Made by a program: the position numbers and the translations under genes
In this document: positions 2,193-38,964 of the stretch, in pieces
Layout of the letters: every line of letters begins with the position of its first letter
Numbering within the stretch: position 1 is the first letter of the stretch
Notes under the pieces: generated by a model
What the model saw: the letters and a program-made list of their open reading frames with translations, nothing else
Told to the model about the DNA's origin: nothing
The model's database searches: none
Virus record (IMG/VR): IMGVR_UViG_3300025407_001359
Direction: 5' to 3' (one strand)
From: a virus
DNA: 64,000 nucleotides

Positions 2193-2300
2193 TTACACCC
2201 AGATAATCATTCCTCCTACTTTAGTTAAATACTAATAAGCATTATGGCACCTAGACCATAATAACCCTATAATAAAAATAATAATAAGGGAGTAGGAGCA

Positions 2301-2777
2301 ATGCGTTTTATCAAACAAGCTATCACAGCTTTTCTAACCGCAACCGCATTTTCAGCAGTGGCGACCCCTATTAACGACTACAGTTTCAAAAGCCCAAGCC
2401 TAAACGGGTCTGGATACGGTGCCTTCCAATTGGGCTTGGAAAACGAACAATACACACGACAACAGGCAGTGGCTGCATCAATCAAGGCTGCTGCAGATGC
2501 TGCTGCCGCTGCCGCACAAAACACTCCCTTGCAACAATTTTTAACCAACTTAGAGTCACGAATCTACGCACAAATCAGTCAGAACGTGGCCACCAGTATG
2601 TTCAGCACACCGGGACAAGTACAGCCCGGGCAGATAGCTTTTGGTGCTGGACAAATATCTTGGGGACAGGTAATCTTGCCCGGTGGCGGACAAGGAATAC
2701 AGTTGCACGTGTTTGATGGTATGAATACTACAACTATCAACGTTCCGATGGGACAATTTACTCCGGGTGGCAATTGA
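2301..2777 (+). CDS. csgF: Curli assembly protein CsgF-like
   Basis: Signal peptide, YSFKSPSLNG N-terminal motif, FLTNLESRIYAQIS; directly upstream of csgG. Confidence 0.8.
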   Translation: MRFIKQAITAFLTATAFSAVATPINDYSFKSPSLNGSGYGAFQLGLENEQYTRQQAVAASIKAAADAAAAAAQNTPLQQFLTNLESRIYAQISQNVATSMFSTPGQVQPGQIAFGAGQISWGQVILPGGGQGIQLHVFDGMNTTTINVPMGQFTPGGN

Positions 2778-4063
2778 TGAAACGAATCTTAATTTTATCC
2801 GCTCTCATTTTAGCCCTGTCTGGTTGTGCCGTTAGCCAGAAAGTGGGTATCTTGGAAGAAAAACCCAAGTTGATGAAACAGGAAATGATCAAAGAACTTG
2901 ACTCAGTTCCGCCTCCTGCCAAAGGACGCCTAACTGTAGCAGTCTACAACTTTAGCGACAAGACCGGACAGCGTAAAGCAACCCCAGGTGTGGCCAGTTT
3001 CAGTACAGCAGTCACACAAGGTGGTGATGCACTATTGATACGTGCCTTACAAGACGTAGGACACGGTACTTGGTTTGATGTTGTAGAACGTGGCAACATA
3101 GATGCCTTGACCAAGGAACGCTTGATCATTACACAGATGCGTCAGGCCTATGAAGGTGCCAATGCACAGAAACTGATGCCATTACAGTTTGCCGGTATCA
3201 TCATTGAAGGTGGTATCATTGGCTACGATTCAGGCCTAGAGTCCGGCGGTGTGGGCTACAACTTCTTGGGTATTGGGCCTACCACACAGTATTCAAAAGA
3301 TGTAATTACAATTAGCTTACGTGCTGTGTCGGTAAACACCGGCAAGATACTTGCTACCATTGCTGTGACAAAAACAGTTTACTCAACCGCAGACTCAATC
3401 GCCATATTTAAGAGTGTAGATCCAGGTGGAAGCATAAGCGACCTGGTCAAACAGATAGGTGCACCCAACACTGGCAGTCAAAGTGCCATAGCCGGTATAT
3501 TCCAATTTGAATCTGGCATTACCATCAACGAAGCCACAACCATAGCACTCAAAGCCGCTGTGGAAAGTGCTGTGGTAGAATTGATCAAAGAAGGCGAACG
3601 TAAAGGTGTATGGGAATACAGATATCCATTGACACCTGAACGGGCCTGGTACGACTTTACCAAAGACAAACCACAGCCAACATTGACACCCACACCAGTG
3701 CCGGCTGTTGCAACACCAGTTCAACCTGTAGTGCAAGTTGAAAAAAAGAACAGTTTGATAGACTCTACCCGAGTATATACAAACAAATCAAATTTGAACG
3801 GACCCAGTTATGGCCTATACCATACCTATCCCAAAAATACAGTAGTAACAGTAGTGCCAACAGAGTTTAATGATGTTGTAGAAATAACCACACCCGACGG
3901 TAAACGGGGTTACGTTAAATCTACACAAATTAAAGAAGAAGTATTGTCGCCACGACCATCGACTAACCCGGTCACGGAACCTGCAATTCCGTTGGGCCCA
4001 TCAAAGAAAGAAGATGTTCCGGCAGACCAAGCAGCAAAAGAAGGAGTAATACCGGCGAAGTAG
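2774..4063 (+). CDS. csgG: Curli secretion channel CsgG with Pro-rich linker and C-terminal SH3-like extension
   Basis: Lipobox LSGC; AVYNFSDKTGQRK, STAVTQGG, WFDVVER, IIEGGIIGYD motifs. Confidence 0.92.
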   Translation: MMKRILILSALILALSGCAVSQKVGILEEKPKLMKQEMIKELDSVPPPAKGRLTVAVYNFSDKTGQRKATPGVASFSTAVTQGGDALLIRALQDVGHGTWFDVVERGNIDALTKERLIITQMRQAYEGANAQKLMPLQFAGIIIEGGIIGYDSGLESGGVGYNFLGIGPTTQYSKDVITISLRAVSVNTGKILATIAVTKTVYSTADSIAIFKSVDPGGSISDLVKQIGAPNTGSQSAIAGIFQFESGITINEATTIALKAAVESAVVELIKEGERKGVWEYRYPLTPERAWYDFTKDKPQPTLTPTPVPAVATPVQPVVQVEKKNSLIDSTRVYTNKSNLNGPSYGLYHTYPKNTVVTVVPTEFNDVVEITTPDGKRGYVKSTQIKEEVLSPRPSTNPVTEPAIPLGPSKKEDVPADQAAKEGVIPAK

Positions 4064-4106
4064 TAGGAGTCGCAGGACAAGGGCCAAGGGCCAAGGAAAG
4101 AACAAA

Positions 4107-5033
4107 ATGAAATATAGACTAGCTAAAATAATAACAGTAGTGCTAGGTCTTGTATGTACAGGTGTTTATGCTGCCGACGACAGTATCTACATCAATCAAT
4201 CAGGTAGCAATTCAACTATTAACATGACCCAGAATGGAGCCAGTAACGTGGTTGAAGGAATTCAAGGTACCGGCACGGGAACAACTACACCCGCAATCAT
4301 TACCGGTAACAACAATACTGTGAATGTGAGCCAAGTTGGTAGTGGCAATACTTTGCAGTTGGGGCTTCAGACAGGCACAGCCAACTCGGGTCAAAATACT
4401 GGGTCGGGATCAGGCAATAATTTTACCTATAATGTGACCGGTGACAATGCCACTGCCATTATTAACAGTAATAACGCAGGTACTACAGGTGCCAGCCAAA
4501 GCAACAATATCACTGTTAATCAAACAGGTAATACTGCCAACTTGAATGTTAACCTACTAGGTTCAAACAATAACTTTACAGCAACAACCTCGGGCGGTGC
4601 AAGTAACTCGGTAGTGGCCACTGTAAAAGGATCTGGTACTAACGATCAGATCTCAATGACTGGTGGTGCCAACAACAGCTTGACTTTGAATCAAGGTGTA
4701 AACACTCAAGTGGTAACAGGTACACAAGTCAACGTACAAAGTGTAGGTGCTAACAACACTTATAATTTGAATCAGGACGGTGGTACCAATGGTAACAATA
4801 TCACTATTGGTGGATACAATGCCACAGGTCTTACTGTGAGTGGTGCCGCAGTTGGTAACGGTAACAGTTACACCGTGACGCAATCGGGTAACTATGACAA
4901 CACCTTAATCCTGGGCGTAACTGGTGGTAGCAACACATTTGGTATTACACAAACAGCCACTGGTGGCAACAACGTGACCAATATACAAACAAATGGTAGC
5001 AACAACTCTTGGACTGTACACCAAACACGTTAA
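4107..5033 (+). CDS. Curlin-repeat protein (CsgA/CsgB-like major subunit)
   Basis: Signal peptide then many N-x-I/V-x-I-x-Q-x-G repeats; Asn/Gly/Thr/Gln-rich; follows csgG. Confidence 0.8.
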   Translation: MKYRLAKIITVVLGLVCTGVYAADDSIYINQSGSNSTINMTQNGASNVVEGIQGTGTGTTTPAIITGNNNTVNVSQVGSGNTLQLGLQTGTANSGQNTGSGSGNNFTYNVTGDNATAIINSNNAGTTGASQSNNITVNQTGNTANLNVNLLGSNNNFTATTSGGASNSVVATVKGSGTNDQISMTGGANNSLTLNQGVNTQVVTGTQVNVQSVGANNTYNLNQDGGTNGNNITIGGYNATGLTVSGAAVGNGNSYTVTQSGNYDNTLILGVTGGSNTFGITQTATGGNNVTNIQTNGSNNSWTVHQTR

Positions 5034-5034
5034 T

Positions 5035-5205
5035 ATGGATAGACGTTTTTTAGAGATTATGTATCAACAGTGGCAACAAGGCATGACAGATTATGCCAAC
5101 CGCTGGATAGATTTTGTAGAAATGGCAGCTCGTGTCAATGGAACGACTGCTGATCAAATAATGAAAGAGTTACAAAAATGCAGCTGGTTTATAAAGGGAG
5201 ACTGA
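5035..5205 (+). CDS. Small hypothetical protein (56 aa)
   Basis: ATG 1 nt after the curlin stop; MDRRFLEIMYQQWQQ...; fills the gap to the FecR gene. Confidence 0.5.
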   Translation: MDRRFLEIMYQQWQQGMTDYANRWIDFVEMAARVNGTTADQIMKELQKCSWFIKGD

Positions 5206-6335
5206 TATGGACAGTGGTACTATGCGCCGCCTTTGCCAGTATCTCCACGAATTGCGTAGCCGGAATCGGGACCATAACGGAACAGGTGAACACTCCGGCA
5301 CAGATTCAACGGGCAAAATCCACGTTAACTGGAACCAAGGGCACTCCAGTAGAAATGGCCGACGCAATAAACACAACAAAGGGTAAGGTCGGTATAGTAT
5401 TTGCCGATGAAACCAAGGTACAGGTAAATGAAAATTCAAAACTGGTCATTGACGAATTTGTTTACGACCCAAAAAATAAAGATGCTGGCAAGCTGGCTCT
5501 CAACATGGCCAGCGGAACAGTTCGCTACGCCTCGGGGGCGATTGCTCATAACAATCCTAATAAGGTGGCTATCAACACTCCTACTGCTACCATTGCTGTT
5601 CGCGGTACTGATTTTACTGCTACTGTGGACGAACTGGGTGAATCAACTGTAATTTTATTACCATCGTGTCCAAGAAAAGATCTACTACCAGACGAAATAG
5701 AAAGACTATGTAAGACTGGTCGTATTGATGTTATCAATGATGCCGGTACCGTTACACTGGATCAACCATTCCAAGGTACCAAAGTTACAGCTAGAAACAT
5801 AGCCCCCACAAAACCTGCCGTACTACGCTTAAACGAAGATGGTATCAGCAACATTTTGATCTTGGCACCGCCACAAGAAATCAAAAACGCAATCAAACAA
5901 AGAGAAGAAGAAAAACAACAAGCCGTAACAGCCTTGAGTCAAAACTTCTTGCAGGGTGTTGACTTAGGTAGTGTGCTGGCCGCACAGAACGCAACCTACT
6001 TGAGCAATGCATTAGAACGTAACTTTTTGGATCAAGACTTCTTGGCCAATGTGTTGACCTTGTTGAACGATCAGTTGGCTGCAGAGTTTGGAAACCTGTT
6101 GGCACCAAAAACAAACAGTTTGTTGCCTGATTATAAAAAAGAAACTGGTGTGGTAGCCACGGTTGATCCTATCAGTGTTACACTATGTCGTACAGACTCT
6201 GGCAACAACACCAGCTGCGTTACCACACCGCACGTACAGAATTCAACAGTTACACAGACACAAAGTGAAAATGTGGCTATTAAAAATCGTATCAACGCTG
6301 GTGGCAATACTTACATAAACATAAAGCAGAACTGA
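5178..6335 (+). CDS. FecR-domain periplasmic/secreted protein
   Basis: Signal peptide; INTTKGKVGIVFADETKVQVNENSKLVID and INTPTATIAVRGTDF FecR motifs. Confidence 0.85.
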   Translation: MQLVYKGRLIWTVVLCAAFASISTNCVAGIGTITEQVNTPAQIQRAKSTLTGTKGTPVEMADAINTTKGKVGIVFADETKVQVNENSKLVIDEFVYDPKNKDAGKLALNMASGTVRYASGAIAHNNPNKVAINTPTATIAVRGTDFTATVDELGESTVILLPSCPRKDLLPDEIERLCKTGRIDVINDAGTVTLDQPFQGTKVTARNIAPTKPAVLRLNEDGISNILILAPPQEIKNAIKQREEEKQQAVTALSQNFLQGVDLGSVLAAQNATYLSNALERNFLDQDFLANVLTLLNDQLAAEFGNLLAPKTNSLLPDYKKETGVVATVDPISVTLCRTDSGNNTSCVTTPHVQNSTVTQTQSENVAIKNRINAGGNTYINIKQN

Positions 6336-6336
6336 T

Positions 6337-7809
6337 ATGAAATTTGTTGCCTACCTATTTGTTGCTGTTTTACTTGCCGGACTTGGTCAGTGCAATCGAG
6401 CTCACGCTGCCGGGGTAGCTGGCTGGAACTACACTACCTATTATGCTGGTGGCGCCAGTCCTAGTACAAGTAATAGAACTGTAGATACTACAGGTGTAAC
6501 TACGTCAATCAATTATGACTGGGGCGGCGGTTTAGTTTTAGATAGCAGACTGTATGATGGAGTTATCATACACTTTCAAGGCTACTTGCAAGCACCAACT
6601 ACAGGAACTTATTATTTTGGCATTACCAGCGACGACGGCAATCAGTTAACTATCAACAATACTGTAGTGACTGCCTGTTGGTGCGAACAAGGACCTACAT
6701 TTAGATCGGGCAGTATATATCTCACAGCAGGACAAATAGTACCAGCGGATATTTGGTATTATGAAAACGGTGGCGGTGCCATGGTACAATTTTGGTGGTA
6801 TACCAACGGTAGTTGGCAAATAGTACCTACGTCAATGCTGGCTACCAGTGCCAGTTATTGGGGGCCCAGTGTTACAGGGTATGGCGGTGGAACCGTTACA
6901 ACTACATCAACTTCGGGATCTGTGACATCTACCTACAACCAACCTGTGACCATTACCTACTACAGCGATGGCTCACAAACCACTGCCAACAATGGCGCCG
7001 CTACACTGATCAGTACAACTGACACAGGTGGATCTTCAACCATCACTGGCACACAACAACAGATGGTCAACGCAGTGGCCTCAAGAATGCCTGGCCTGGG
7101 CGACAACAGCATTTATATAAATCAAACTGGCACAGGCGACACCATTAATATTACACAAAAAGGTGCCGGAAACCGTATTGACGGAGCAACAAGTACTGCA
7201 AACGGACCAGGCTACACCACGGCCGCGCCCATCACCGGCGGCGGTAATCACATTACTGTACGACAACAATCAAACAACAACCTAATTGATTTGGCCGCGG
7301 TGGGTGGCAACAATACTCTTAACCTAAATCAAGGCACAGATAGTAACGGTAATTCAACTGGCTTGGATACTGGCGGACACTATCAGTTTGACTATGTGAA
7401 TGGCACAGGCAATAACTTGACAGTAGTTCAGGAAAATACTGCCACTGGCGCCGGGCAATTTTCCAGCGTGGCCATAATAGGCAACTTAAACACCGTGGGC
7501 ATTACACAAACCGGCAACGCCAGAAATCAATTGTTTGCCACAGTATCGGGCAACAGCAACAACATAACCACAACACAAACAGGAACCAGTGCTGGCTACG
7601 TCAACATCAATGCTTCAGGCAATGGTAACTCTGCTGTGGTAACACAATCAAACGCCGGTAGTGGCGGATCTAATAACGCATCAATAACTTTAATAAATGC
7701 AGGAGCACCGGCGTCGGTGAACCTGACACAAACAGGTGGGCAAAACTATTCGGTAACACAAACCTGCGCCACCACCTGTGGTACAGTAACCGTACGTCAA
7801 GGAAACTAA
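6337..7809 (+). CDS. PA14 domain-curlin repeat fusion protein
   Basis: INYDWGGG...FQGYLQAPTTGTYYFGITSDDG...WYYENGGGA (PA14) followed by curlin repeats (DNSIYINQTG..., N-x-L-x-V-x-Q). Confidence 0.8.
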   Translation: MKFVAYLFVAVLLAGLGQCNRAHAAGVAGWNYTTYYAGGASPSTSNRTVDTTGVTTSINYDWGGGLVLDSRLYDGVIIHFQGYLQAPTTGTYYFGITSDDGNQLTINNTVVTACWCEQGPTFRSGSIYLTAGQIVPADIWYYENGGGAMVQFWWYTNGSWQIVPTSMLATSASYWGPSVTGYGGGTVTTTSTSGSVTSTYNQPVTITYYSDGSQTTANNGAATLISTTDTGGSSTITGTQQQMVNAVASRMPGLGDNSIYINQTGTGDTINITQKGAGNRIDGATSTANGPGYTTAAPITGGGNHITVRQQSNNNLIDLAAVGGNNTLNLNQGTDSNGNSTGLDTGGHYQFDYVNGTGNNLTVVQENTATGAGQFSSVAIIGNLNTVGITQTGNARNQLFATVSGNSNNITTTQTGTSAGYVNINASGNGNSAVVTQSNAGSGGSNNASITLINAGAPASVNLTQTGGQNYSVTQTCATTCGTVTVRQGN

Positions 7810-7810
7810 C

Positions 7811-8002
7811 GTGATATCATTTACCGTAAACAAATATCGATACTACGAAGATAATTTAGATGATGTAAGTTTGTATGTGCATGAATGCGGCGGATATTTT
7901 GAAATACAAAGATATGTGGTAGAATTTTATGTGCCAACAGAATATCGAGATTTTATTATGATCAAATATCCATTTTTAGAGGAGGTACCTTATGTTTATT
8001 GA
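7811..8002 (+). CDS. Small hypothetical protein
   Basis: GTG start 1 nt after the upstream stop; 63 aa. Confidence 0.45.
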   Translation: MISFTVNKYRYYEDNLDDVSLYVHECGGYFEIQRYVVEFYVPTEYRDFIMIKYPFLEEVPYVY

Positions 8003-8171
8003 ATTACTGGCTCAAATTGCCGGCGGCTTATTTGGTCTTGCTGTTGCGTATGCAATGCACAGATTTGTTGAAAGACCATACGAACGCAGTACACAAGAAG
8101 CTCGGGTCAAGTACGAAGCCGAAATGGCAGAAATACGTCGTCAAAAAGAACAGTTGCGTAAAGCTAAATAA
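7992..8171 (+). CDS. Small membrane protein (59 aa)
   Basis: Own translation MFIELLAQIAGGLFGLAVAYAMHRFVERPYERSTQEARVKYEAEMAEIRRQKEQLRKAK*; GGAGG RBS at 7981-7985; TM helix plus coiled tail. Confidence 0.65.
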   Translation: MFIELLAQIAGGLFGLAVAYAMHRFVERPYERSTQEARVKYEAEMAEIRRQKEQLRKAK

Positions 8172-8175
8172 GTGT

Positions 8176-8240
8176 GCGGGCACAAGATAAGGTGTCGTGG
8201 GAATCCGTAATCCACGCTAAGGGACCGAAAGGTCCTTTTT
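8176..8240 (+). ncRNA. Candidate ~65-nt structured small RNA
   Basis: TAAATA at 8165-8170; hairpins GGCAC/GTGTC and CGTGGG/TCCACG; 5' GCGGG can pair with loop TCCGT; ends in a terminator. Confidence 0.4.
8219..8240 (+). terminator. Rho-independent terminator
   Basis: AAGGGACC-GAAA-GGTCCTTT followed by T tract. Confidence 0.85.
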
Positions 8241-8319
8241 CTTTGTCACAATTTTCTGGTTGACAACAGCTAAATACTATGTTACAGTTTTATTACAGTA
8301 ACCGAAAGGGAGATAAGCT

Positions 8320-8478
8320 ATGAAACAACGGAAATTAATTTCTCAAGTGTATCAGGCTTGTGTTGACCACGATGCCGAGAAACAGTTTGAACTTCGCAAA
8401 AAAGAGTTCGCCAAAATCTTGAAACACAAGGCCGAAGGCAAACCATTTACACCAAAATGGACAGTAGTACAGATTTAA
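8320..8478 (+). CDS. Small basic hypothetical protein (52 aa)
   Basis: Own translation [52 protein letters not shown]; GGGAG RBS; own promoter (TTGACA-N17-TACAGT with internal TAAATA). Confidence 0.65.
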
Positions 8479-8523
8479 TTATACTGTAATACATCAACTA
8501 CCGATTGGGCGGTAAATACGATT

Positions 8524-9291
8524 ATGAATCGTACTTATCGCTCAATTTTTATTTCCGATGTACACTTTGGCACCAGAGATTGCAAGGCCGAGGAACTCAA
8601 CAACTTTCTCAAACACAACACCTGCGAAACACTTTATCTAGTGGGCGATATAATTGATGCTTGGAAAATTCAACAAAACAAGTGGCGCTGGCGACAGAGT
8701 CACACCAATGCTGTCAGACGAATCTTGGGCCACGCTAAACGTAACACACGAGTTGTATACGTAGCTGGTAACCACGACGAGTTTCTTCGTCCACTGATAC
8801 CATATGGTATGGGTTTTGGACGAGTAGAAATTGTAAATCAATGCGAACACGTGGGAGCCGATGGCAAACGTTATCTGGTTACTCACGGTGATCTGTTTGA
8901 CGGTATTACCAAATTGGCGCCTTGGTTAGCCTTTTTGGGTGACAAGATGTATGACTTTGTGCTAAACTTGAACTCTAGCTACAACTGGATTCGTCATCGT
9001 CTAGGATTTGGCTACTGGTCCCTGTCAAAATTTCTCAAACACAAAGTAAAAAGTAGTGTAGATTTCATTTTTCAATTTGAACGGAATCTAGCAACATACT
9101 GTAAAAAACGTGGCTTCGATGGTGTAATATGTGGGCATATACATCACGCAGAAATCAAAGACATTGACGGAGTCACATATATGAACGATGGCGATTGGGT
9201 GGAATCAATGACAGCCTTGGTCGAACATCACGACGGGCAATGGGAAATCATAACCTGGACACAAGCTCATGACAGTATTACTTCTAACTAA
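8524..9291 (+). CDS. Metallophosphoesterase, LpxH/PlcP-like (UDP-2,3-diacylglucosamine diphosphatase family)
   Basis: SDVHFG, LVGDIID, GNHDE, HGD, CGHIH, NDGDWVES motifs. Confidence 0.88.
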   Translation: MNRTYRSIFISDVHFGTRDCKAEELNNFLKHNTCETLYLVGDIIDAWKIQQNKWRWRQSHTNAVRRILGHAKRNTRVVYVAGNHDEFLRPLIPYGMGFGRVEIVNQCEHVGADGKRYLVTHGDLFDGITKLAPWLAFLGDKMYDFVLNLNSSYNWIRHRLGFGYWSLSKFLKHKVKSSVDFIFQFERNLATYCKKRGFDGVICGHIHHAEIKDIDGVTYMNDGDWVESMTALVEHHDGQWEIITWTQAHDSITSN

Positions 9292-10150
9292 ACAAACAAA
9301 AAAAGCCTACGAACGCCGCCGCCTGGAAGAAAGTTTTGCCGATAAAAAAATCAAAACAACTGTCAAGCATCCAAAAGACTTTGATCTGGTAGTGACTCAC
9401 GAAATAGAACACAGCGTCAAATTGAATGGTCAAGATTTTGAGTGGCCCAAATTTGTAATACTGCGTGGCACCAGTGGCGAAAACAATTTTAACCTGGCCA
9501 TTATGCGAGAATTTGAACAGGCCGGAATTCCAGTTATCAACAGTCCCACAGCAATTGAAAATGCCCGAGACAAATTGCGTACTTGCCAGATTTTGGCCAA
9601 CAACGGTATTCGTATTCCCAAAACTTTGATGTTCAAGTGGCCGGTGGATGAAGAATTGATTGAACGAGAAATAGGCTGGCCCTGTGTGGTTAAGGTAGTG
9701 TCGGGCAGTCAAGGCAATGGCGTATATCTCTGCAAAAAACGCAAACATTTCACAGCCTTGATGAATATGGCAGTTACCTTGGGCAATCGTCAAACTCTTA
9801 TTGTACAAGAATACATGGCTGACCGAGTTGGCGAAGACCTACGTGTGTTGGTAGTTGGCGGACGTGTGATTGGCGCTATGCGCAGAATCAGCAATGATGA
9901 TTTTCGTGCCAACATCAGCCAAGGTGGCCACGGTGAGCCATTCCCTGTGTCAGACGAAATTGATTACATATCTAGAGAAGCTGCCAGACTGTTGGGACTA
10001 GAAGTTGCCGGTATTGATTTGTTGTTTGATGGCGACAGTTTCAGAGTATGCGAAGTAAATAGCAATCCAGGTTTTCGTGGATTTGAACGATACTGCGATG
10101 TCAATGTAGCTGATGCCATCACAGAATATATTAGACTAAAAATTCAATGA
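9269..10150 (+). CDS. rimK: RimK-family ATP-grasp ligase
   Basis: DKLRTCQIL, PCVVKVVSGSQGNGV, VQEY, DLRVLVVG, FRANISQGG, AGIDLL, EVNSNPG. Confidence 0.88.
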   Translation: MTVLLLTKQTKKAYERRRLEESFADKKIKTTVKHPKDFDLVVTHEIEHSVKLNGQDFEWPKFVILRGTSGENNFNLAIMREFEQAGIPVINSPTAIENARDKLRTCQILANNGIRIPKTLMFKWPVDEELIEREIGWPCVVKVVSGSQGNGVYLCKKRKHFTALMNMAVTLGNRQTLIVQEYMADRVGEDLRVLVVGGRVIGAMRRISNDDFRANISQGGHGEPFPVSDEIDYISREAARLLGLEVAGIDLLFDGDSFRVCEVNSNPGFRGFERYCDVNVADAITEYIRLKIQ

Positions 10151-11145
10151 AAACTATATTGGTAATAACCGACAACCTAAAGGATCAAATCAATGGTGTG
10201 GTCACAACTTTCAAAAACCTGGAAGATCACGCTGGCCGTGATGGGTATCGTGTTGTTTATTGTGATCCCGGGCAGTTCCCTAATTTTGCTTGCCCTGGCT
10301 ATCCTGAAGTTCGTCTCTGTTGGCCGCACGGCATCAGTAAAAAAATTAAAGCGATATGTCCGGATTTTATACACATCGCTACAGAAGGGCCTGTAGGCCT
10401 ATTTGCAAGGTGGTGGTGTGAGCGCAATCATATTCCTTATAATACTAGTTATCATACTGATTTCCCCGAGTTCTTAAAGACCATGTACCGTGTGCCCAAG
10501 AGCATAACTTATTGGTACCTGCGTTGGTTTCACAAGAACAGTCATCGTGTGCTGGTTACTACTCGCACTATTCAACAGGATTTGGCACAGCACGGATTTG
10601 AACGTATGGTCGTATGGACACGCGGAGTCCGCAGAGACATTGAGCCTAGCCGGGAGCGTTGTGAACGTACACGCCCGTTGTTGCTCAATGTGGGCCGTGT
10701 CAGTAGCGAAAAAGGTCTAGCCAGCCTGGTGGAGTTGGACAGTGACCAGTACAACCTGGTCATTGTGGGTGATGGACCATATATGAGTCGTGCTAGACAG
10801 TTGTTGCCCGAAGCTCATTTTGTTGGCTACAAGTCTGGACAAGAATTAGTGGACTATTATCATCAAGCAGACGTTTTTGTATTCCCTAGCCAAGCAGATA
10901 CTTTTGGCCTGGTTATTATTGAAGCAATGGCACAAGGTTGTCCAGTGGCGGCTTTTCCTGTACAAGGTCCTGTAGACATTATCGAACAGGGTGTAAATGG
11001 TTATATGTCGTGGGACCTGGAAGAGGCTGTACGCGAATGCTTGACCCTAGATCGAAACGTGGTCAAACAGTCTAGTCAACAGTGGACTTGGGAAGAATGT
11101 TGGCGTATATTCCGTGAAAATCTAGTAGAAGCGGATAAATATTAA
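10147..11145 (+). CDS. GT4 glycosyltransferase (glycolipid synthase Agt/MgtA-like)
   Basis: NGVVTT, HIATEGPVG, YHTDFPE, VGRVSSEKG, FPSQADTFGLVIIEAMAQG. Confidence 0.88.
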   Translation: MKTILVITDNLKDQINGVVTTFKNLEDHAGRDGYRVVYCDPGQFPNFACPGYPEVRLCWPHGISKKIKAICPDFIHIATEGPVGLFARWWCERNHIPYNTSYHTDFPEFLKTMYRVPKSITYWYLRWFHKNSHRVLVTTRTIQQDLAQHGFERMVVWTRGVRRDIEPSRERCERTRPLLLNVGRVSSEKGLASLVELDSDQYNLVIVGDGPYMSRARQLLPEAHFVGYKSGQELVDYYHQADVFVFPSQADTFGLVIIEAMAQGCPVAAFPVQGPVDIIEQGVNGYMSWDLEEAVRECLTLDRNVVKQSSQQWTWEECWRIFRENLVEADKY

Positions 11146-11165
11146 AATGTAAATAGGACTTTAAA

Positions 11166-12896
11166 ATGGCAATAACTATTGGTGGCGGCATAACAATTGG
11201 TAGCGGCATCAGCCTAGGGGGCGGTACAATTTCTTCTTCCCCTACACCAACCTATAGCGTAACACCCGGTGCTGGTAGCATCAACGAAGGCAGCGGTCTA
11301 ACATTCACAGTATCTGGTACCAACATCACAGATGGCACATACTACTGGGCTATCAATAACGTAACCACCAGTACCGCAGACTTTGGAACTAACTCTGGTT
11401 TGTTTACTATTACTGGCAACTCAGGTTCATTTACAGTAACACCCACAGCTGACAACTTGACAGAAGGAGCAGAAACCTTTACTGTATCTGTTCTCACAGG
11501 TAGTACTTCTGGTACAGTAGTCGCTACCAGTACTTCTGTCACAGTCAATGATACAAGCACAACACCTGCTCCAAGCTATACTGCAACTCCTACTGCAAAC
11601 AATGTCAACGAAGGCAGTAGCTTAACCATTAATGTCACAGGATCAAATATCACAGATGGCACATACTACTGGACCATTAATAACGGCACAACAAGTACTG
11701 CTGACTTTGGTACCAATAGTGGAAGTTTCTCCATTACAAGTAACTCAGGATCATTTAGTGTAACACCCACAGCTGACAACTTGACAGAAGGAGCAGAAAC
11801 CTTTACAGTACAAATCCGTACTGGTAGTACTAGTGGTACAGTAGTAGCCACAACATCAACCATCACCGTCAACGATACAAGCACAACTCCTGGCCGCGGT
11901 GGAAATCGAGTAGTATTCTTTGCGTACAGCAGTGCCCCAGCATCGTTTGGAGCCTATTCTGTTGATCCATACACTAGCATAGTGTCAAGTACCACTGTAC
12001 CACAGTCAACAATAACTGCTGGATATTGTGCATCTTCAGGCAACGTGTTAATGGTGGCGGACGGGTACGGACAAGGTGGCACAACCAACACCGCTGGAAA
12101 TGCATTGACTACCAGTGACGGTATTACCTGGAACCAGGTCACCAGATTGCCACAATTTAGTCCCAACCCTGCTAACATTCGTTGGAGCGGTCTTGCATAC
12201 GGTAACGGAACCTGGGTAGCAGTTGCAGGCGGTCCTAATGCACAATCTACACAAGTAGCCTACAGTACCAATAATGGAAGCACGTGGACCAGTATTAACC
12301 CGTTGCCTAGCAACTACTACGTCGGCGGTGGATTTGGTAATAATATTTTTGTGGCTCTTGCTCCGTTTGGTTCCAATGGATACAGCAGTACAGATGGAAT
12401 AACTTGGACACAAGGCCCAGTAAGACCGACCAATTTTTCAACAACACCGGTATATGTACCATCATTGAACAAGTGGTATGCAATTGATCACACGCCGAGC
12501 ACAAGTGGAAACTTGATGGTAGCAACTTCAACCAATAATATGTCATCATGGACCAGCAATACCTACTCAACTCCTGGTATTCTCTACTACGATAACGTAC
12601 TATGGGCTTACGGAAACGGAGTGTTTGTGGTACTAAATACTCTTCAGACTTTCAGTTACACCAGCACCGACGGTGTAAACTGGACACAACATTCTGGCGT
12701 ATTTTCGGGTCAATTCTATTGGAATAAACTGGTATGGACCGGAACAGAATTTATTGCAGCCAGTACCACCATAAATCCATATGTTTCGTCTTATTGGTAC
12801 AGTCCCGACGGAGCCACATGGACACAAATCACATCAGTTCCAGGAGATCCAACTGGCACACAAGGACTTCTATTAGATGGCCTGTTGACCTCATAA
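11166..12896 (+). CDS. Putative virion surface/receptor-binding protein with two Calx-beta/Ig-like domains and a C-terminal beta-propeller-like region
   Basis: MAITIGGGITIG leader; 2 x 108-aa repeats (NEG...TEGAETFTV); S/T-D-G-x-x-W propeller-type repeats. Confidence 0.6.
   Translation: MAITIGGGITIGSGISLGGGTISSSPTPTYSVTPGAGSINEGSGLTFTVSGTNITDGTYYWAINNVTTSTADFGTNSGLFTITGNSGSFTVTPTADNLTEGAETFTVSVLTGSTSGTVVATSTSVTVNDTSTTPAPSYTATPTANNVNEGSSLTINVTGSNITDGTYYWTINNGTTSTADFGTNSGSFSITSNSGSFSVTPTADNLTEGAETFTVQIRTGSTSGTVVATTSTITVNDTSTTPGRGGNRVVFFAYSSAPASFGAYSVDPYTSIVSSTTVPQSTITAGYCASSGNVLMVADGYGQGGTTNTAGNALTTSDGITWNQVTRLPQFSPNPANIRWSGLAYGNGTWVAVAGGPNAQSTQVAYSTNNGSTWTSINPLPSNYYVGGGFGNNIFVALAPFGSNGYSSTDGITWTQGPVRPTNFSTTPVYVPSLNKWYAIDHTPSTSGNLMVATSTNNMSSWTSNTYSTPGILYYDNVLWAYGNGVFVVLNTLQTFSYTSTDGVNWTQHSGVFSGQFYWNKLVWTGTEFIAASTTINPYVSSYWYSPDGATWTQITSVPGDPTGTQGLLLDGLLTS
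11244..11891 (+). repeat. Tandem 324-bp direct duplication (2 x 108 codons)
   Basis: Identical stretch acacccacagctgacaacttgacagaaggagcagaaacctttac at 11439 and 11763. Confidence 0.9.
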
Positions 12897-12906
12897 TAAA
12901 TACTTG

Positions 12907-14922
12907 ATGCTCAAAAAAATACTTGTCAGTCCCTGGACTGCTCTACTAACTCTAGCTCTAGTTGTTGCTGTACGTGCAGCTGACCCTACATTTGTTGAAA
13001 GCGTAAGACTACGTTACTTTGATACTTTGGTAACAAGTCGGCCAGCTGAAACCATTGGTGTGGACGTGGTAAATATTGATGAAAAAGCCCTGGAACGATA
13101 CGGGCAATTTCCTTTTTCAAGAGACATATATGGAAAAATTATTAGTGATTTGTACCGTCGCAATGCGGGCCTTGTTGTATTTAATATTCTCACTCCTGAT
13201 CGTGACCGCCTTGGTCGAGATGCGGATTATATAGCCGCACTTAAACAATTCCCAACAGTACTACCCAGCATAGGTAGTACACAAACTCGTAACACTCCTA
13301 GAGCTCCAGGATCTGTAGTTATTGGCCCGTACGGCTTGGATACCTTTGTAACTTATCCTGGACTGATTGCCAATATACCTGCGGTGGAATCAGCGGCCGC
13401 TGGTGTTGGCGTTACCAATACACTCCCTGAAGTGGATGGTGTTGTACGTCGTATGCCCTTGGTAGTTGCTTACAATGGCAAACTGTATCCAAGTTTAGCA
13501 ATGGAGACCTTACGTGTGGCCGGTGCTGACTCCACAGTACAGATCAAAGTAAATGAAAATGGCGTTGAGAAAATGCGTATTCCCAAGTTTGGTCCTGTGA
13601 CCACAGACAGCTTGAGTCGCATCTGGATTGACTGGAGTCTAGTTCCAGAGCATTACAGTTTAACAGACTTGCCTCAGGATTTTGAAGGCAACATAGTCAT
13701 TGTGGGTGTGAGTGCCCAAGGTCTTGCTAATCCTGTTGCTACTAGTCGTGGTGAAATGTTGCCACAAGATTTACAAGCAAGTGTACTGGGTACAGTGATT
13801 GCCAATCGAGACAGACCGGCTATTACCAGACCTGACTGGGCCGACGGCGGCGAACTTTTAGCCTTGGTAGTATTGGGCATAGCGTTACTTTTTTTAACAA
13901 GGTGGGTATATGTTGGACTCGTTACTGGTGTTGTCACTATTGGTGTTTTGCTTCCTTTATCTCAGTATTTTTACACGAATTATCTTTGGCTTACTGACGT
14001 TACTGCCCTTATTGGCGGTCTTGTTGTTGTTCTCCTTCATGCTTACGGTGTTAAGTTTGTAAGCGAATTCCTACAGAAACAACAAATCAAAAAGCAATTT
14101 GGTAGTTATGTTAATCCTACCATAGTAGAACGATTACAAAAGGATCCATCACTGATTAAATTGGGCGGTGAACGCAAAGAGCTTTCAATTGTCATGACTG
14201 ACCTGCGTGGCTTTACTACACTAGGCGAAAGTTTTGGCGATGACGTGGAAGGCCTAACACAGATCATGAATGACTATATGACAGCCTTGAGTGTACCAGT
14301 ATTAAAGAACAATGGTACACTGATCAAGTTTATCGGTGATGCCAGCTTGCACGTACACGGCGCCCCGTTAGATGACGTCAACCACGCACATACCGCGGTA
14401 CTCACAGCATTGGACATGATTCGAGCTATCGAAGAATTTAACGTGGAGTTGGTGGCCAAAGGACGCCCACCGGTGGGTATGGGTGCTGGAGTCAACACCG
14501 GTGAGACCTTGATTGGTAACATTGGTGCCAAAACCAAATTTGGTTATGACGTGTTGGGCGACTCAGTCAGTACTGCTGCGCGACTAGAAGGACAGACCAA
14601 AGCATATGGAGTATTATTGATCATTGGCCCACGCACCGCAGAACTGGTACGCAATGAAATACCTGTAATGGAACTTGATTGCATAGCAGTCAAAGGCAAA
14701 ACAATTGGATTAAATATATATACTCCGGAACAGAGTACTAAAGAGCACGAAGATTTCTTAAAATTGTATTACGCCGGCGAATGGAAAAAAGCATTAGCAT
14801 TGATACCAGGGTGTGTAAAAGCCAACCCTAGAATGGAAAAGTACTATGATGCAATGGCCGCACGATTGGAAGAAGGTTGTCCCGCCAGCTGGGACGGAGT
14901 ATATCACGCTACTAGTAAATAG
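12907..14922 (+). CDS. CHASE2-domain class III adenylate cyclase
   Basis: N-terminal TM, CHASE2 (VVNIDEKAL, DGVVRRMPL), 3 TMs, cyclase motifs MTDLRGFT, KFIGD, YDVLGDSVSTAARLE; K/D residues specify ATP. Confidence 0.92.
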   Translation: MLKKILVSPWTALLTLALVVAVRAADPTFVESVRLRYFDTLVTSRPAETIGVDVVNIDEKALERYGQFPFSRDIYGKIISDLYRRNAGLVVFNILTPDRDRLGRDADYIAALKQFPTVLPSIGSTQTRNTPRAPGSVVIGPYGLDTFVTYPGLIANIPAVESAAAGVGVTNTLPEVDGVVRRMPLVVAYNGKLYPSLAMETLRVAGADSTVQIKVNENGVEKMRIPKFGPVTTDSLSRIWIDWSLVPEHYSLTDLPQDFEGNIVIVGVSAQGLANPVATSRGEMLPQDLQASVLGTVIANRDRPAITRPDWADGGELLALVVLGIALLFLTRWVYVGLVTGVVTIGVLLPLSQYFYTNYLWLTDVTALIGGLVVVLLHAYGVKFVSEFLQKQQIKKQFGSYVNPTIVERLQKDPSLIKLGGERKELSIVMTDLRGFTTLGESFGDDVEGLTQIMNDYMTALSVPVLKNNGTLIKFIGDASLHVHGAPLDDVNHAHTAVLTALDMIRAIEEFNVELVAKGRPPVGMGAGVNTGETLIGNIGAKTKFGYDVLGDSVSTAARLEGQTKAYGVLLIIGPRTAELVRNEIPVMELDCIAVKGKTIGLNIYTPEQSTKEHEDFLKLYYAGEWKKALALIPGCVKANPRMEKYYDAMAARLEEGCPASWDGVYHATSK

Positions 14923-15025: not shown

Positions 15026-15745
15026 TTAAACGGCATCAAGAGCGCGAACCTTTGCAAGCCCGCAACGTCTAAGTAGTTGTATATAAGTCCAACCCAAATC
15101 CCATTCCCAAGGTTTCATACTTAATTTGGCACTGGCCGGATCTGCGTGATGATTGTTGTGTAATTCTTCTCCACCAATAAAGAACGCCCAAGGCACAATA
15201 TTAGTTGAGTAATCGTTGGTCCTGGTATTACGATAACCCCACCAGTGACCAAAGCCGTTGATTACACCAGCTGCCCATAATGGAATCCAAACCATTTGCC
15301 ATAACCAAGGCAACCAACCCCAGGCCCAGCCCCATACGGCACAGTTGATAAAGAACATCAACACAATACCCACAAAGTTAAATCTAGTATACACATTGCG
15401 TTCCATCCAGTCGTTGGGTGTGCCGGCTCCATAGGTGTCGACCATTTCTTGATCCCGTGCTGCATCGGCATAATAAAACGCACCACCCAAGAATATTTGC
15501 CAAATGCCGTACACGTGAGGACTATGCGGATCACCTTCTCCATCTGTATAACGATGATGTTTACGATGTGTTGCTACCCATTGCTTGGTAACCATACCAG
15601 TGGTAAGCCACAACCAGAATCGCATAAAGTGTTGTACACGTGTATCAAACGTGACTGATCGATGTGCTTGGCTACGATGTAAATAAAGTGTAACGCAGGC
15701 TATGGTGATGTGAGTCATCACCAGGATGTATAATATTAATGTCAT
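15026..15745 (-). CDS. Fatty acid desaturase (delta-9, DesA/Ole1-like)
   Basis: His boxes HRSQAH, HRKHH, HNNHH; GEELHNNHHA motif. Confidence 0.9.
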   Translation of the reverse strand: MTLILYILVMTHITIACVTLYLHRSQAHRSVTFDTRVQHFMRFWLWLTTGMVTKQWVATHRKHHRYTDGEGDPHSPHVYGIWQIFLGGAFYYADAARDQEMVDTYGAGTPNDWMERNVYTRFNFVGIVLMFFINCAVWGWAWGWLPWLWQMVWIPLWAAGVINGFGHWWGYRNTRTNDYSTNIVPWAFFIGGEELHNNHHADPASAKLSMKPWEWDLGWTYIQLLRRCGLAKVRALDAV

Positions 15746-18486: not shown

Positions 18487-19704
18487 ATGAATGTAGGGTT
18501 TATTGGTATTGGTAAATTGGGTATGGCTTGTGCCGAAGTAATGGCCAGCAAGCACACAGTAACTGGTTATGATATTTATCCACGCACTAGCGACAAAATT
18601 AAGATTGCAACCAATCTTGAAGAAGCGGTAACCGGTAAAGATCTCATCTTTATTGCGGTACAAACACCGCACGATCCTATTTACGGCGGCGATCAACCTA
18701 TTACTCATTTACGCAACAAAGATTTTGATTACACAATCGTAAATCAAGTGTTGGCAGATGTCAATCAATATGCCAAACCCGAACAATTAGTAGTCCTTAT
18801 CTCAACAGTTCTTCCCGGCACTACACGGCGCGAACTGAGGAACAACATTACCAATGCACGTTTCATTTACAATCCTTACCTTATTGCTATGGGATCAGTT
18901 GAATGGGACATGGTCAACCCCGAGATGGTTATGATTGGTACCGAAGACGGTAGCGAAACTGGCGATGCTAGAGAGCTGATTGACTTCTATAAAACAATAA
19001 TGGAGAACGACCCACGTTACGTAGTTGGTACCTGGGACGAAGTAGAATGTATCAAAGTGTTTTACAACACATTCATTAGTGCCAAGATTGGCCTGGTCAA
19101 TATGATACAAGACGTGGCTATCAAACAAGGCAACATCAACGTGGACGTGGTCACTGCGGCATTGGCCAACAGTACTATGCGTATCATGGGACCCAAGTAT
19201 ATGACAGCAGGTATGGGCGACGCAGGACCTTGCCATCCACGCGACAACATTGCCTTGCGTTACCTAGCAGAAACGCTGGACATTGGTTACGATATTTTTG
19301 ACACCATCATGAAAGCACGTGAACAACAGGCAAAAAATATGGCACGTTTTATCTATGACCATTGCGAAGGACTGCCAGTGTACATTCACGGTAAAGCATA
19401 CAAACCGGGTGTAGAATATCTTGAAGGCAGTTACAGTCTGTTGGTAGGTTACTATTTAAAAGAGATGGGCATTGATCCGGTCTACATTGATCCCTTGACT
19501 GAACCTTCAAATCCGTCGGTTGTTAAAGGTTGCATCTTGTTGGCACACAATCAACAGGTGACCTATGGCTATGCTGGAGTTACTGAAAATCAACCTACCT
19601 ATTGCATTTTTGACCAGGGCAGTATCGTTATTGATCCTTGGCGCCGGTATCCACAGAACGGTAATCTTCGAGTTATACATTATGGCAACACCCGTGCTAA
19701 TTAA
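18487..19704 (+). CDS. ugd: UDP-glucose/GDP-mannose dehydrogenase family protein
   Basis: GFIGIGKLG Rossmann motif, FIAVQTP, STVLPG, IKVFYNTFIS, GDAGPCHPRD. Confidence 0.85.
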   Translation: MNVGFIGIGKLGMACAEVMASKHTVTGYDIYPRTSDKIKIATNLEEAVTGKDLIFIAVQTPHDPIYGGDQPITHLRNKDFDYTIVNQVLADVNQYAKPEQLVVLISTVLPGTTRRELRNNITNARFIYNPYLIAMGSVEWDMVNPEMVMIGTEDGSETGDARELIDFYKTIMENDPRYVVGTWDEVECIKVFYNTFISAKIGLVNMIQDVAIKQGNINVDVVTAALANSTMRIMGPKYMTAGMGDAGPCHPRDNIALRYLAETLDIGYDIFDTIMKAREQQAKNMARFIYDHCEGLPVYIHGKAYKPGVEYLEGSYSLLVGYYLKEMGIDPVYIDPLTEPSNPSVVKGCILLAHNQQVTYGYAGVTENQPTYCIFDQGSIVIDPWRRYPQNGNLRVIHYGNTRAN

Positions 19705-38505: not shown

Positions 38506-38592
38506 ATGATTATGACATATTTAGCCTGTTTGATCGCTGTAGCAGTTTTACTCTATGTAATGATAGAGATAAAAAACTGGTTGGATTTTTAA
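38506..38592 (+). CDS. 28-aa hydrophobic peptide
   Basis: MIMTYLACLIAVAVLLYVMIEIKNWLDF*; TATAAATA abuts the ATG. Confidence 0.4.
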   Translation: MIMTYLACLIAVAVLLYVMIEIKNWLDF

Positions 38593-38598
38593 AGAATT

Positions 38599-38914
38599 GT
38601 TGTAACTCCTTTAGAGTGAAGGCATTGCGGACGTGGGTGCGATTCCCACCACCTCCACCTAAACGTATTGTTGATCTGGGACACGAAGTCGTGCAGTTAG
38701 TCTAAGATCCCATTGTTTAGTGGGTACACAGGGGCAGATCCTGTACAGTATGTTTAGTTGGGGGTGACTAGTTTCGACGTGGTGAGATAGCAACGAAGGC
38801 AACAGGACAGAGCAGTCCAAAAAACTAAAAAAAGTAAACGCAAACGACTCACAGTTCGCATTGGCAGCCTAAGGGCCGCCTAGGGCAGGAAATGCCTCGT
38901 AACAGAAACAACCA
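38599..38914 (+). ncRNA. ssrA: Circularly permuted (two-piece) tmRNA; tag ANDSQFALAA
   Basis: Acceptor piece 38599-38659 (T-arm GTGGG-TGCGATT-CCCAC, CACCTCC-A-CC) precedes coding piece starting GGGGGTGACTAGTTTCGAC at 38760; G3:U70 pair; tag ORF 38840-38872. Confidence 0.92.
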
Positions 38915-38939
38915 TTGTGTTGCCTAAAAACAACACCTT

Positions 38940-38964
38940 AAACCCCCTGAAAATGGGGGTTTTT
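38940..38964 (+). terminator. Rho-independent terminator after tmRNA
   Basis: AAACCCCC-TGAAAAT-GGGGGTTT-TT. Confidence 0.85.

Follow-up and report, generated by a model that had tools for sequence, protein, structure and literature searches.

What use could a phage have for an amyloid export system, and why should the genes of such a system be accompanied by a membrane cyclase? The question is raised by a locus (positions 2301-14922, + strand) in IMG/VR virus record IMGVR_UViG_3300025407_001359. We analysed a 64,000-nucleotide stretch of this record, called the window here, which corresponds to bases 60729-124728 of the total 157,933 bp. The record also encodes GroEL, a ClpB-like ATPase, a class I ribonucleotide reductase, a DnaB-type helicase and tail-fibre-like proteins; since these genes stand in a 158-kb IMG/VR virus record, we take the DNA of the window to be that of a phage. 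CheckV puts the completeness of the record at 43%, and whatever was not found in it is bounded by that figure.

The locus carries csgF, csgG, a curlin gene and a gene for a FecR-domain protein, all in one orientation, followed by a second curlin gene and by a cyclase gene with a CHASE2 sensor domain. Together on phage DNA, these genes are a viral type VIII secretion system (T8SS) of the pelagiphage type. The reading that we favour is that the curli set builds fibres and that the FecR/CHASE2 pair reports their state as cyclic AMP (cAMP). We consider this reading as a whole reasonably probable, the fibre part being much more likely than the coupling part. Below we describe the parts, ask how constantly they are found together, and weigh the other ways of explaining them.

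The Export Channel and Its Putative Substrates

The first gene of the cassette, csgF (2301-2777, +), encodes an exported protein of 158 amino acids (aa) that belongs to Pfam family CsgF (PF10614; 39.8 bits against a gathering cut-off of 25.8, E=6e-10) and to phrog_35372. A phmmer search of the PDB with it gave zero hits. Judged by eye, the mature N-terminus is like the segment of E. coli CsgF that plugs CsgG. The csgF stop codon overlaps the ATG of csgG by one base; this ATG, at 2777, is most likely the start of csgG, the open reading frame (ORF) as called opening at 2774. The csgG product (2777-4063, +) is a lipoprotein with the lipobox LSGC. It scores 142 bits with Pfam CsgG (PF03783), for which the cut-off is 20.8, and the E. 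coli CsgG structures 3x2r and 6lqh match it at E~3e-40. When the constriction loop is aligned to that of E. coli, the Phe is retained, Tyr51 is replaced by Thr and Asn55 by Ser. The C-terminus (residues ~290-429; positions 3638-4063) is an addition, made of a Pro-rich linker and a small SH3-like domain (a weak match to Pfam SH3_2, E=0.03), and is found neither in E. coli nor in most relatives. The length of CsgG varies from 263 to 445 aa across relatives, and therefore the extension appears to have been often gained or lost.

Two putative fibre subunits accompany the channel. Curlin 1 (4107-5033, +; 308 aa) has a signal peptide and ~12 strand-turn-strand repeats of the Q-x-G-x-x-N type. The second subunit (6337-7809, +; 490 aa) is a fusion in which a signal peptide is followed by a PA14 domain, a Thr/Ser linker and curlin repeats. 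Its PA14 domain (residues 52-156; Pfam 49.8 bits, E=4e-13) is of the glycan-binding type, and residues 246-468 align with the profile of curlin 1 (hhalign 98.3%, E=1.5e-14). The sequence-only reading had named the Pfam families to be expected at this locus: CsgG, CsgF, FecR, CHASE2 and Guanylate_cyc all score above their cut-offs, and Curlin_rpt (PF07012) fails. Against curlin 1 the latter gives nothing even at E=5, and against the PA14-curlin it gives 9.4 bits, below its cut-off of 20.7. The curlin identity holds all the same, because the family profile of curlin 1 matches two solved structures, the curlin-repeat protein 8c50 at E=3e-27 and CsgA of E. coli (8enq) at E=4e-6. The AlphaFold2 model of curlin 1 is a regular array of 23 strands with a predicted local distance difference test (pLDDT) score of 78; a Foldseek search with it returned only generic three-sided beta-helices and was uninformative. 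From their sequences, both subunits are Sec-exported curlin-repeat proteins, and they are predicted to form fibres. Signal peptides are present on all four exported proteins, and the cassette, as read from its genes, has every part required for curlin export.

The curli system of E. coli and Salmonella (csgBAC-csgDEFG) has in common with the window the CsgG lipoprotein channel, CsgF, and Sec-exported Q/N-ladder subunits, those of the window being homologous to CsgA. The enteric subunits have 5 repeats, whereas those of the window have ~12, and one of them bears PA14. The phage set further differs by the Thr/Ser in place of Tyr51/Asn55 in the CsgG loop, by the added FecR protein and CHASE2 cyclase, and in that CsgE, CsgC and CsgD were not found. 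The lack of csgE in the window had been remarked upon from the sequence, and a search for CsgE through the whole 158-kb record was likewise empty; CsgC and CsgD had no match in Pfam scans of the window proteins.

Constancy of the Module in Related Viruses

How constantly are these genes found together? A scan of IMG/VR returned at least 596 stretches with a relative of CsgG, and genes were counted in the 80 best loci, wherever enough DNA was present. The order csgF-csgG-curlin-FecR is invariant, FecR occurring in 51 of 51 loci. It is followed by a second curlin in 31 of 45 loci, in 13 of them with a PA14 domain. The cyclase is found in 28 of 30; it lies 0.6-5.1 kb beyond FecR, in three of the 28 on the opposite strand, and its presence spans CsgG identities from 45% to 88%. 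The sequence-only reading had made itself dependent on FecR and the cyclase being neighbours of the csg genes in related phages, and these counts are in its favour. The linkage is graded: it is tight between the csg set and FecR, and strong but looser for the CHASE2 cyclase. FecR homologues, of which 5322 were collected, lie on contigs of up to 380 kb.

Among cultured phages, a tblastn search with CsgG found Pelagibacter phage HTVC008M, which infects SAR11, and Methylophilales phage Melnitz, which infects OM43. Both are Kyanoviridae and carry csgF as well as csgG, in agreement with the sequence-only reading, which had placed the two genes in some T4-like aquatic phages. In both records six consecutive genes are annotated as CsgF, CsgG, curlin, FecR, curlin and cyclase. 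This set and its order are those of the window, and CsgE is absent there as well. The CsgG proteins are 38-39% identical to that of the window and the FecR proteins 35-36%. By Pfam, the cyclases of both phages are made of CHASE2 and Guanylate_cyc, and the second curlin of HTVC008M is a fusion of PA14 with curlin repeats, all as in the window; the curlin homologues of Melnitz and HTVC008M pass Curlin_rpt. Compared with these phages, the window has in addition the linker and SH3-like domain of CsgG and a 56-aa gene between curlin and FecR. The cyclase, which in Melnitz and HTVC008M adjoins the cassette directly, is separated from the operon in the window by a terminator and 4.7 kb of cargo. Finally, the histidine kinases that lie upstream of podophage T8SS clusters (PMC9599517) have no counterpart upstream of csgF, where the window has a gene with a PP-loop motif. 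This gene (1044-2192), directly 5′ of csgF, encodes a 382-aa protein with the PP-loop ATPase motif SGGMDS; it has no match in Pfam, NCBIfam or PHROG, and is kept upstream of csgF in eight related loci.

The cassette with FecR and cyclase is not new. A "curli operon" was described in pelagimyophages, for which sibling capture was proposed (Zaragoza-Solas et al., 2020; PMC7029224), and a pore for lysis timing was proposed for Melnitz (Buchholz et al., 2022; PMC9004378). CsgF, CsgG, CsgA/B, FecR, a second CsgA/B and an adenylate cyclase were then reported in podo- and myo-pelagiphages (Wittmers et al., 2022; PMC9599517). In the same study the T8SS genes were detected at each of the 65 GOV2.0 stations and were expressed in ocean metatranscriptomes, and an alphaproteobacterial origin was inferred. 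The paper names neither CHASE2 nor PA14 and does not mention jumbo phages, and "freshwater" occurs in its reference list only. A literature search found no paper tying curli genes to jumbo phages, and a megablast of the curli region against phage records gave zero matches.

The CHASE2 Cyclase

The last gene of the module (12907-14922, +; the ORF as called opens at 12904) encodes a class III cyclase with a CHASE2 sensor (phrog_35576, E=9e-222). Pfam assigns residues 16-327 to CHASE2 (128.9 bits), and the Guanylate_cyc domain scores 63.6 bits. The predicted topology is that of a membrane receptor: a transmembrane segment, a periplasmic CHASE2 domain, a hydrophobic block likely to cross the membrane several times, and a cytoplasmic class III domain. 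By hydropathy, the hydrophobic segments are residues 3-31, 312-355 and 359-387.

The catalytic motifs TDLRGFT, KFIGD, YDVLGD and AARLE align to those of Cya2 (2w01) and CyaB (3r5g). Both metal Asp residues are retained, as are the adenylate-type Lys and Asp and the transition-state Arg. The transition-state Asn (V-N-x-A-x-R) is Ser in the window protein (V-S-T-A-A-R). Two subgroups are seen among 31 phage homologues: 16 have Lys/Asp together with Ser, and 15 have Lys/Thr together with the canonical Asn. We consider the window protein likely to be an adenylate cyclase, its activity being predicted.

The FecR-Domain Protein

The gene between the two curlins (5178-6335, +) encodes a secreted protein of 385 aa that scores 43.3 bits with Pfam FecR (PF04773; cut-off 24). 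A signal peptide is followed by an N-terminal beta domain in two parts, which has an invariant Cys pair, by a helical linker predicted at low confidence, and by a conserved C-terminal beta domain that closes in an invariant Gln. The protein shares the periplasmic FecR fold with the FecR/PupR anti-sigma regulators of TonB-dependent cell-surface signalling. These regulators have a cytoplasmic anti-sigma domain and a membrane anchor, whereas the phage protein has neither. Its FecR domain opens ~30 residues from the N-terminus, straight after the cleavable signal peptide, which leaves no room for a cytoplasmic part, and we therefore reject the identity of an anti-sigma factor. Nor is the protein, as judged from its domains, an iron regulator, despite the label "ferric citrate regulator" in the literature.

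The AlphaFold2 model of the protein is weak overall (pLDDT 61), and a Foldseek search with it gave one weak match. Matching ranges were obtained with VIA-align. Residues 27-100 align to 5ix9, a 76-residue "cell surface anchoring domain" (Z 10.3, root-mean-square deviation 2.4 Å, 24% identity, 72/76 residues). Residues 112-232, in the low-confidence model, align to PupR (6ovm, Z 7.5) and to BDI_1681 (4m0h, Z 6.8). The last ~65 residues form a beta domain that is predicted better than the rest; it is confined to the phage clade, and bacterial homologues are without it. Its ending, x-I-x-I-x-Q, looks curlin-like by eye. A curlin repeat here is speculative and unsupported by profile comparison, as hhalign of the two profiles aligned the signal peptides only (9.5%).

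Could such a protein be a tether across the envelope rather than a regulator, one that anchors the fibre and passes its state of assembly or load to the CHASE2 cyclase? The idea is a speculative one, and we think it improbable. It would draw on three features of the modelled protein. Residues 27-100 resemble the domain by which the RTX adhesin MpIBP is anchored and retained at the cell surface (5ix9); this domain holds a fibre in its outer-membrane channel. The middle part has the signalling fold of FecR/PupR with the invariant disulfide pair. The phage-specific, strictly conserved C-terminal domain could be joined, by way of CsgG, to the curli fibre at its base. If the tether were real, the module would be an amyloid-built mechanical or contact sensor.

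Transcription Units and Cargo

In the sequence-only reading, csgF, csgG, a curlin, FecR and the PA14-curlin formed one operon under a late promoter, and the cyclase followed on the same strand with its own TAAATA. The five genes stand, by Pfam and profile matches. A sixth had been overlooked: a 56-aa protein of cytoplasmic type, without a signal peptide, is encoded between the curlin 1 and FecR genes (5035-5205, +), its last 28 nt lying over the start of the FecR gene. Homologues with E-values as low as 2.5e-41 occupy the same position in 21 related loci, and zero Pfam or PHROG families match it. The RNA structure of the curlin-FecR spacer is ordinary (z -1.2); the spacer proved to be coding, by virtue of this gene. 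Beyond the PA14-curlin lies a 63-aa ORF (7811-8002, +), which many related loci have in the same place and which has zero family matches.

As for the promoter, a TAAATAC motif at 2226-2232 (+), 69 nt before csgF, is a candidate of the late type. In the 158-kb record, 24 of the 45 copies of this motif are at most 100 nt upstream of an ORF start on the same strand, where ~14% are expected. Such placement is not random, and it makes the copy before csgF a plausible promoter. The canonical T4 late box, TATAAATA, did not qualify as a late promoter, being not enriched (5 observed, 3.1 expected). A query with a gp33-like co-activator had no match in the record, and a late sigma factor was likewise not identified in it. 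The csg unit is closed by a strong intrinsic terminator at 8219-8238 (+), with an 8-bp stem, a GAAA loop and a T-run, and a sigma-70-like promoter lies downstream of it (8260-8288).

The cyclase is on the same strand as had been stated, but it does not follow the operon directly: besides the terminator, six ORFs (7811-12896) intervene, with a cargo of ~4.7 kb. The TAAATAC at 12897 was discarded as a cyclase promoter, since it overlaps the preceding TAA TAA and stands 4 nt before the ATG at 12907. At 8524-11145 (+), Pfam and NCBIfam identify an LpxH/PlcP-like metallophosphoesterase, a RimK-family glutamate ligase and a GT4 glycosyltransferase. The ligase, of the alpha-L-glutamate type, sits between the other two, and the GT4 protein has matches of the glycolipid-synthase kind. 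These three genes are probably outside the curli system. The metallophosphoesterase was considered as a cAMP phosphodiesterase, which is less likely: its best NCBIfam matches are of the LpxH type, and it does not match the CpdA model. In seven of the 28 cyclase-bearing loci, the position ahead of the cyclase is again taken by a metallophosphoesterase together with RimK or GT4, so that this slot looks like a cargo site. The remaining protein (11166-12896, +; 576 aa) has a Gly-rich N-terminus, no signal peptide, two Ig/Calx-beta-like repeats of ~105 aa and six S-x-D-G-x-T-W repeats resembling the BNR/Asp-box. Pfam Ig_3 and Calx-beta both fall under their cut-offs, and homologues are absent from the 80 related loci.

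Counterparts in Bacteria

Is the association of FecR with a CHASE2 cyclase peculiar to phages? A scan with a FecR profile, taking one genome per species, found eight short contigs with the full phage-type cassette that were binned into metagenome-assembled genomes (MAGs) of unrelated taxa (an actinobacterium, Flavobacteriaceae, Luteolibacter, Rhodobacteraceae, Pirellulales, Polynucleobacter and Bacteroidetes). These are most likely phage contigs that were mis-binned. The cluster on a 397-kb contig of a Henriciella MAG is of another kind. It reads csgF-csgG-curlin-FecR-CHASE2 cyclase, the cyclase adjoining directly, and its flanks are TonB-dependent receptors, an FAA hydrolase and other cellular or metabolic genes. 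A second Henriciella MAG has the same arrangement. The presence of this cluster in a cell qualifies the published claim that bacterial T8SS operons do not include FecR and the cyclase. FecR of the Henriciella type is rare; none was seen in the 150 other genomes of its order (151 scanned).

Pairs of FecR and CHASE2 genes are also found by themselves. In Hoeflea marina DSM 16791 and three other alphaproteobacterial genomes, FecR is followed directly by a CHASE2 cyclase. CsgG was not found in Hoeflea, which was the sole genome with such a pair to be searched for it. In S. meliloti, cyaD1 (SMc02176) adjoins the FecR-domain gene smc02177 (PMC5498481). In Burkholderiales and P. aeruginosa, a LysM-FecR gene lies beside a CHASE2 histidine kinase, the "BiofilmReg" of Burkholderia (PMC5192318). 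The S. meliloti, Burkholderia and Hoeflea pairs are like the phage pair in that the gene of an exported FecR-domain protein immediately neighbours that of a transmembrane CHASE2 sensor, and the rhizobial pairs share with the phage a class III cyclase as the output. They differ in that the bacterial pairs, the Henriciella cluster excepted, stand without curli genes, and in that the bacterial FecR lacks the phage-type C-terminal domain. When 30 CHASE2 genes were sampled from 201 alphaproteobacterial genomes, four had a FecR-like gene within ~1.4 kb. The adjacency is recurrent, and far from obligatory.

A Proposed Path from Fibre to cAMP

These elements can be arranged into a scheme for the infected cell. 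The csg operon would be expressed in an infected Gram-negative cell, as the promoter-like TAAATAC suggests. CsgG would serve as the outer-membrane channel, and CsgF, translationally coupled to csgG, as its cap and nucleation factor. Sec would carry the curlins over the inner membrane and CsgG-CsgF would let them out through the outer one, after which they would polymerise into beta-solenoid amyloid fibres on the surface, to which the PA14-curlin would give a sugar-binding (glycan) adhesive element. The FecR-domain protein would stay in the periplasm or envelope, pair with the CHASE2 cyclase as a periplasmic sensor, and so allow the state of the envelope or the fibre to be written into cAMP. 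The receiver of cAMP would probably be host CRP, because no protein binding cyclic nucleotides was found in the 158-kb fragment. The system might serve for aggregation ("sibling capture"), to exclude competing phages or to time late events; aggregation, superinfection and lysis timing have already been discussed in the literature for phage curli. The coupling of fibre or contact state to cAMP is inferred from synteny and from the recurrent adjacency of FecR and CHASE2 in bacteria.

Several observations weigh against this scheme. On the side of the fibres, which are predicted here from the genes, CsgE was not detected, the Pfam curlin model misses both subunits, and no clumping was seen in cultures of Melnitz by its authors (PMC9004378). 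On the side of the signal, the change of Asn to Ser in the window cyclase and in 16 of the 31 homologues means that activity is not assured, and the record lacks a detectable cyclic-nucleotide-binding protein. As to the coupling, smc02177 of S. meliloti is dispensable for signal perception, though needed for the biological outcome (PMC5498481), and this counts against a simple model in which FecR feeds CHASE2. Lastly, the window cyclase is parted from the csg operon by a terminator and by 4.7 kb of unrelated genes. Together with the opposite strand of the cyclase in three of 28 loci, this arrangement implies that co-regulation with the csg genes is not required.

A first alternative makes the cyclase independent of curli. 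The FecR protein would then be an accessory of the T8SS, either a periplasmic adaptor or gate that replaces CsgE or a nucleator or anchor like CsgB, and the cyclase would be a separate host-takeover gene that raises cAMP and shares a variable region with the cassette. We hold this to be unlikely, although it survives better than the other alternatives. It would explain why FecR is invariant with csgG and curlin (51/51), while the cyclase stands at a variable distance of 0.6-5.1 kb, at times on the other strand, and is missing in two loci of 30. The terminator and promoter that divide the two units in the window would also fit, as would the dispensability of smc02177 in perception by CHASE2 cyclases (PMC5498481), the low proportion of CHASE2 genes with a FecR neighbour (4/30), and the finding that the cyclase and the second curlin are commoner in myophage than in podophage versions of the module (PMC9599517). 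However, a cyclase that owed nothing to curli would hardly be expected in 28 of 30 loci over CsgG identities of 45-88%, nor to abut the cassette directly in Melnitz, HTVC008M and Henriciella. The FecR-then-CHASE2-cyclase pair of Hoeflea, a bacterium without detected CsgG, points moreover to a functional unit.

A second alternative does away with the fibre and makes CsgG-CsgF a pore only, either a pinholin- or secretin-like timer of lysis or a channel for uptake. A pore was proposed for Melnitz and the pelagimyophages before their curlins were recognised (PMC9004378, PMC7029224), and the Melnitz cultures without clumping (PMC9004378) and the missing CsgE gate would suit it. But the window has two curlins with signal peptides and clear homology to solved curlins, which are conserved beside the pore, and it keeps both the plug region of CsgF and the constriction Phe of CsgG. 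In Gram-negative envelopes, furthermore, an outer-membrane pore alone is unable to depolarise the inner membrane. We regard the pore-only explanation as very unlikely. Least likely of all is that the cyclase domain is weak or dead through the Asn-to-Ser change seen here and in 16 of 31 homologues, and serves as a receptor or scaffold or acts on another substrate, given that both metal Asp, the Lys-Asp pair and the Arg are kept, that the Ser-Thr pair is conserved across diverged sequences, and that the sister subgroup with the canonical Asn suggests an enzymatic family.

We therefore retain the reading of a fibre-building curli set with a FecR/CHASE2 pair that may report on it.

The Carrier Phage

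The known pelagiphage-type modules are carried by 140-kb Kyanoviridae or by podophages of the HTVC023P type. What carries the module of the window? The nearest relatives of its DnaB-type helicase are in the jumbo myophages Atu_ph07 (490 kb) and PA5oct (287 kb), at ~46% identity, and homologues of its FecR gene are found on metagenomic contigs of 330-380 kb. From this we conclude that the carrier is, by the affinities of its genes, an uncultured giant myophage of roughly 350 kb rather than a T4-sized pelagiphage.

Elsewhere in the window (38568-38963), ARAGORN finds a permuted, two-piece transfer-messenger RNA (tmRNA) with the tag peptide ANDSQFALAA. Melnitz, too, has a two-piece tmRNA near its curli genes, and this is a second unusual trait that it has in common with the window phage. 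The window also carries auxiliary genes for a fatty-acid desaturase (15026-15745, -), a UDP-glucose dehydrogenase (18487-19704, +), an ATP-dependent DNA ligase (41239-42549, +) and a flavoenzyme like the tryptophan halogenases (50371-51948, +).

Implications

What is added here to the published module is of three kinds. The module extends beyond the phages of SAR11 and OM43: a giant-phage lineage carries it widely, the IMG/VR contigs numbering in the hundreds and the FecR homologues in the thousands. The sensor of its cyclase is CHASE2, and the catalytic Asn is replaced by Ser. Finally, FecR-CHASE2 is a probable sensing unit of bacteria, joined to curli genes in Henriciella and standing without them in the rhizobial pairs.

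The question with which we began narrows to whether the FecR protein links the fibre or its channel to the cyclase, and Melnitz and HTVC008M carry the same parts. Phage-encoded amyloid export would be an unusual viral route to altering the surface of the host.

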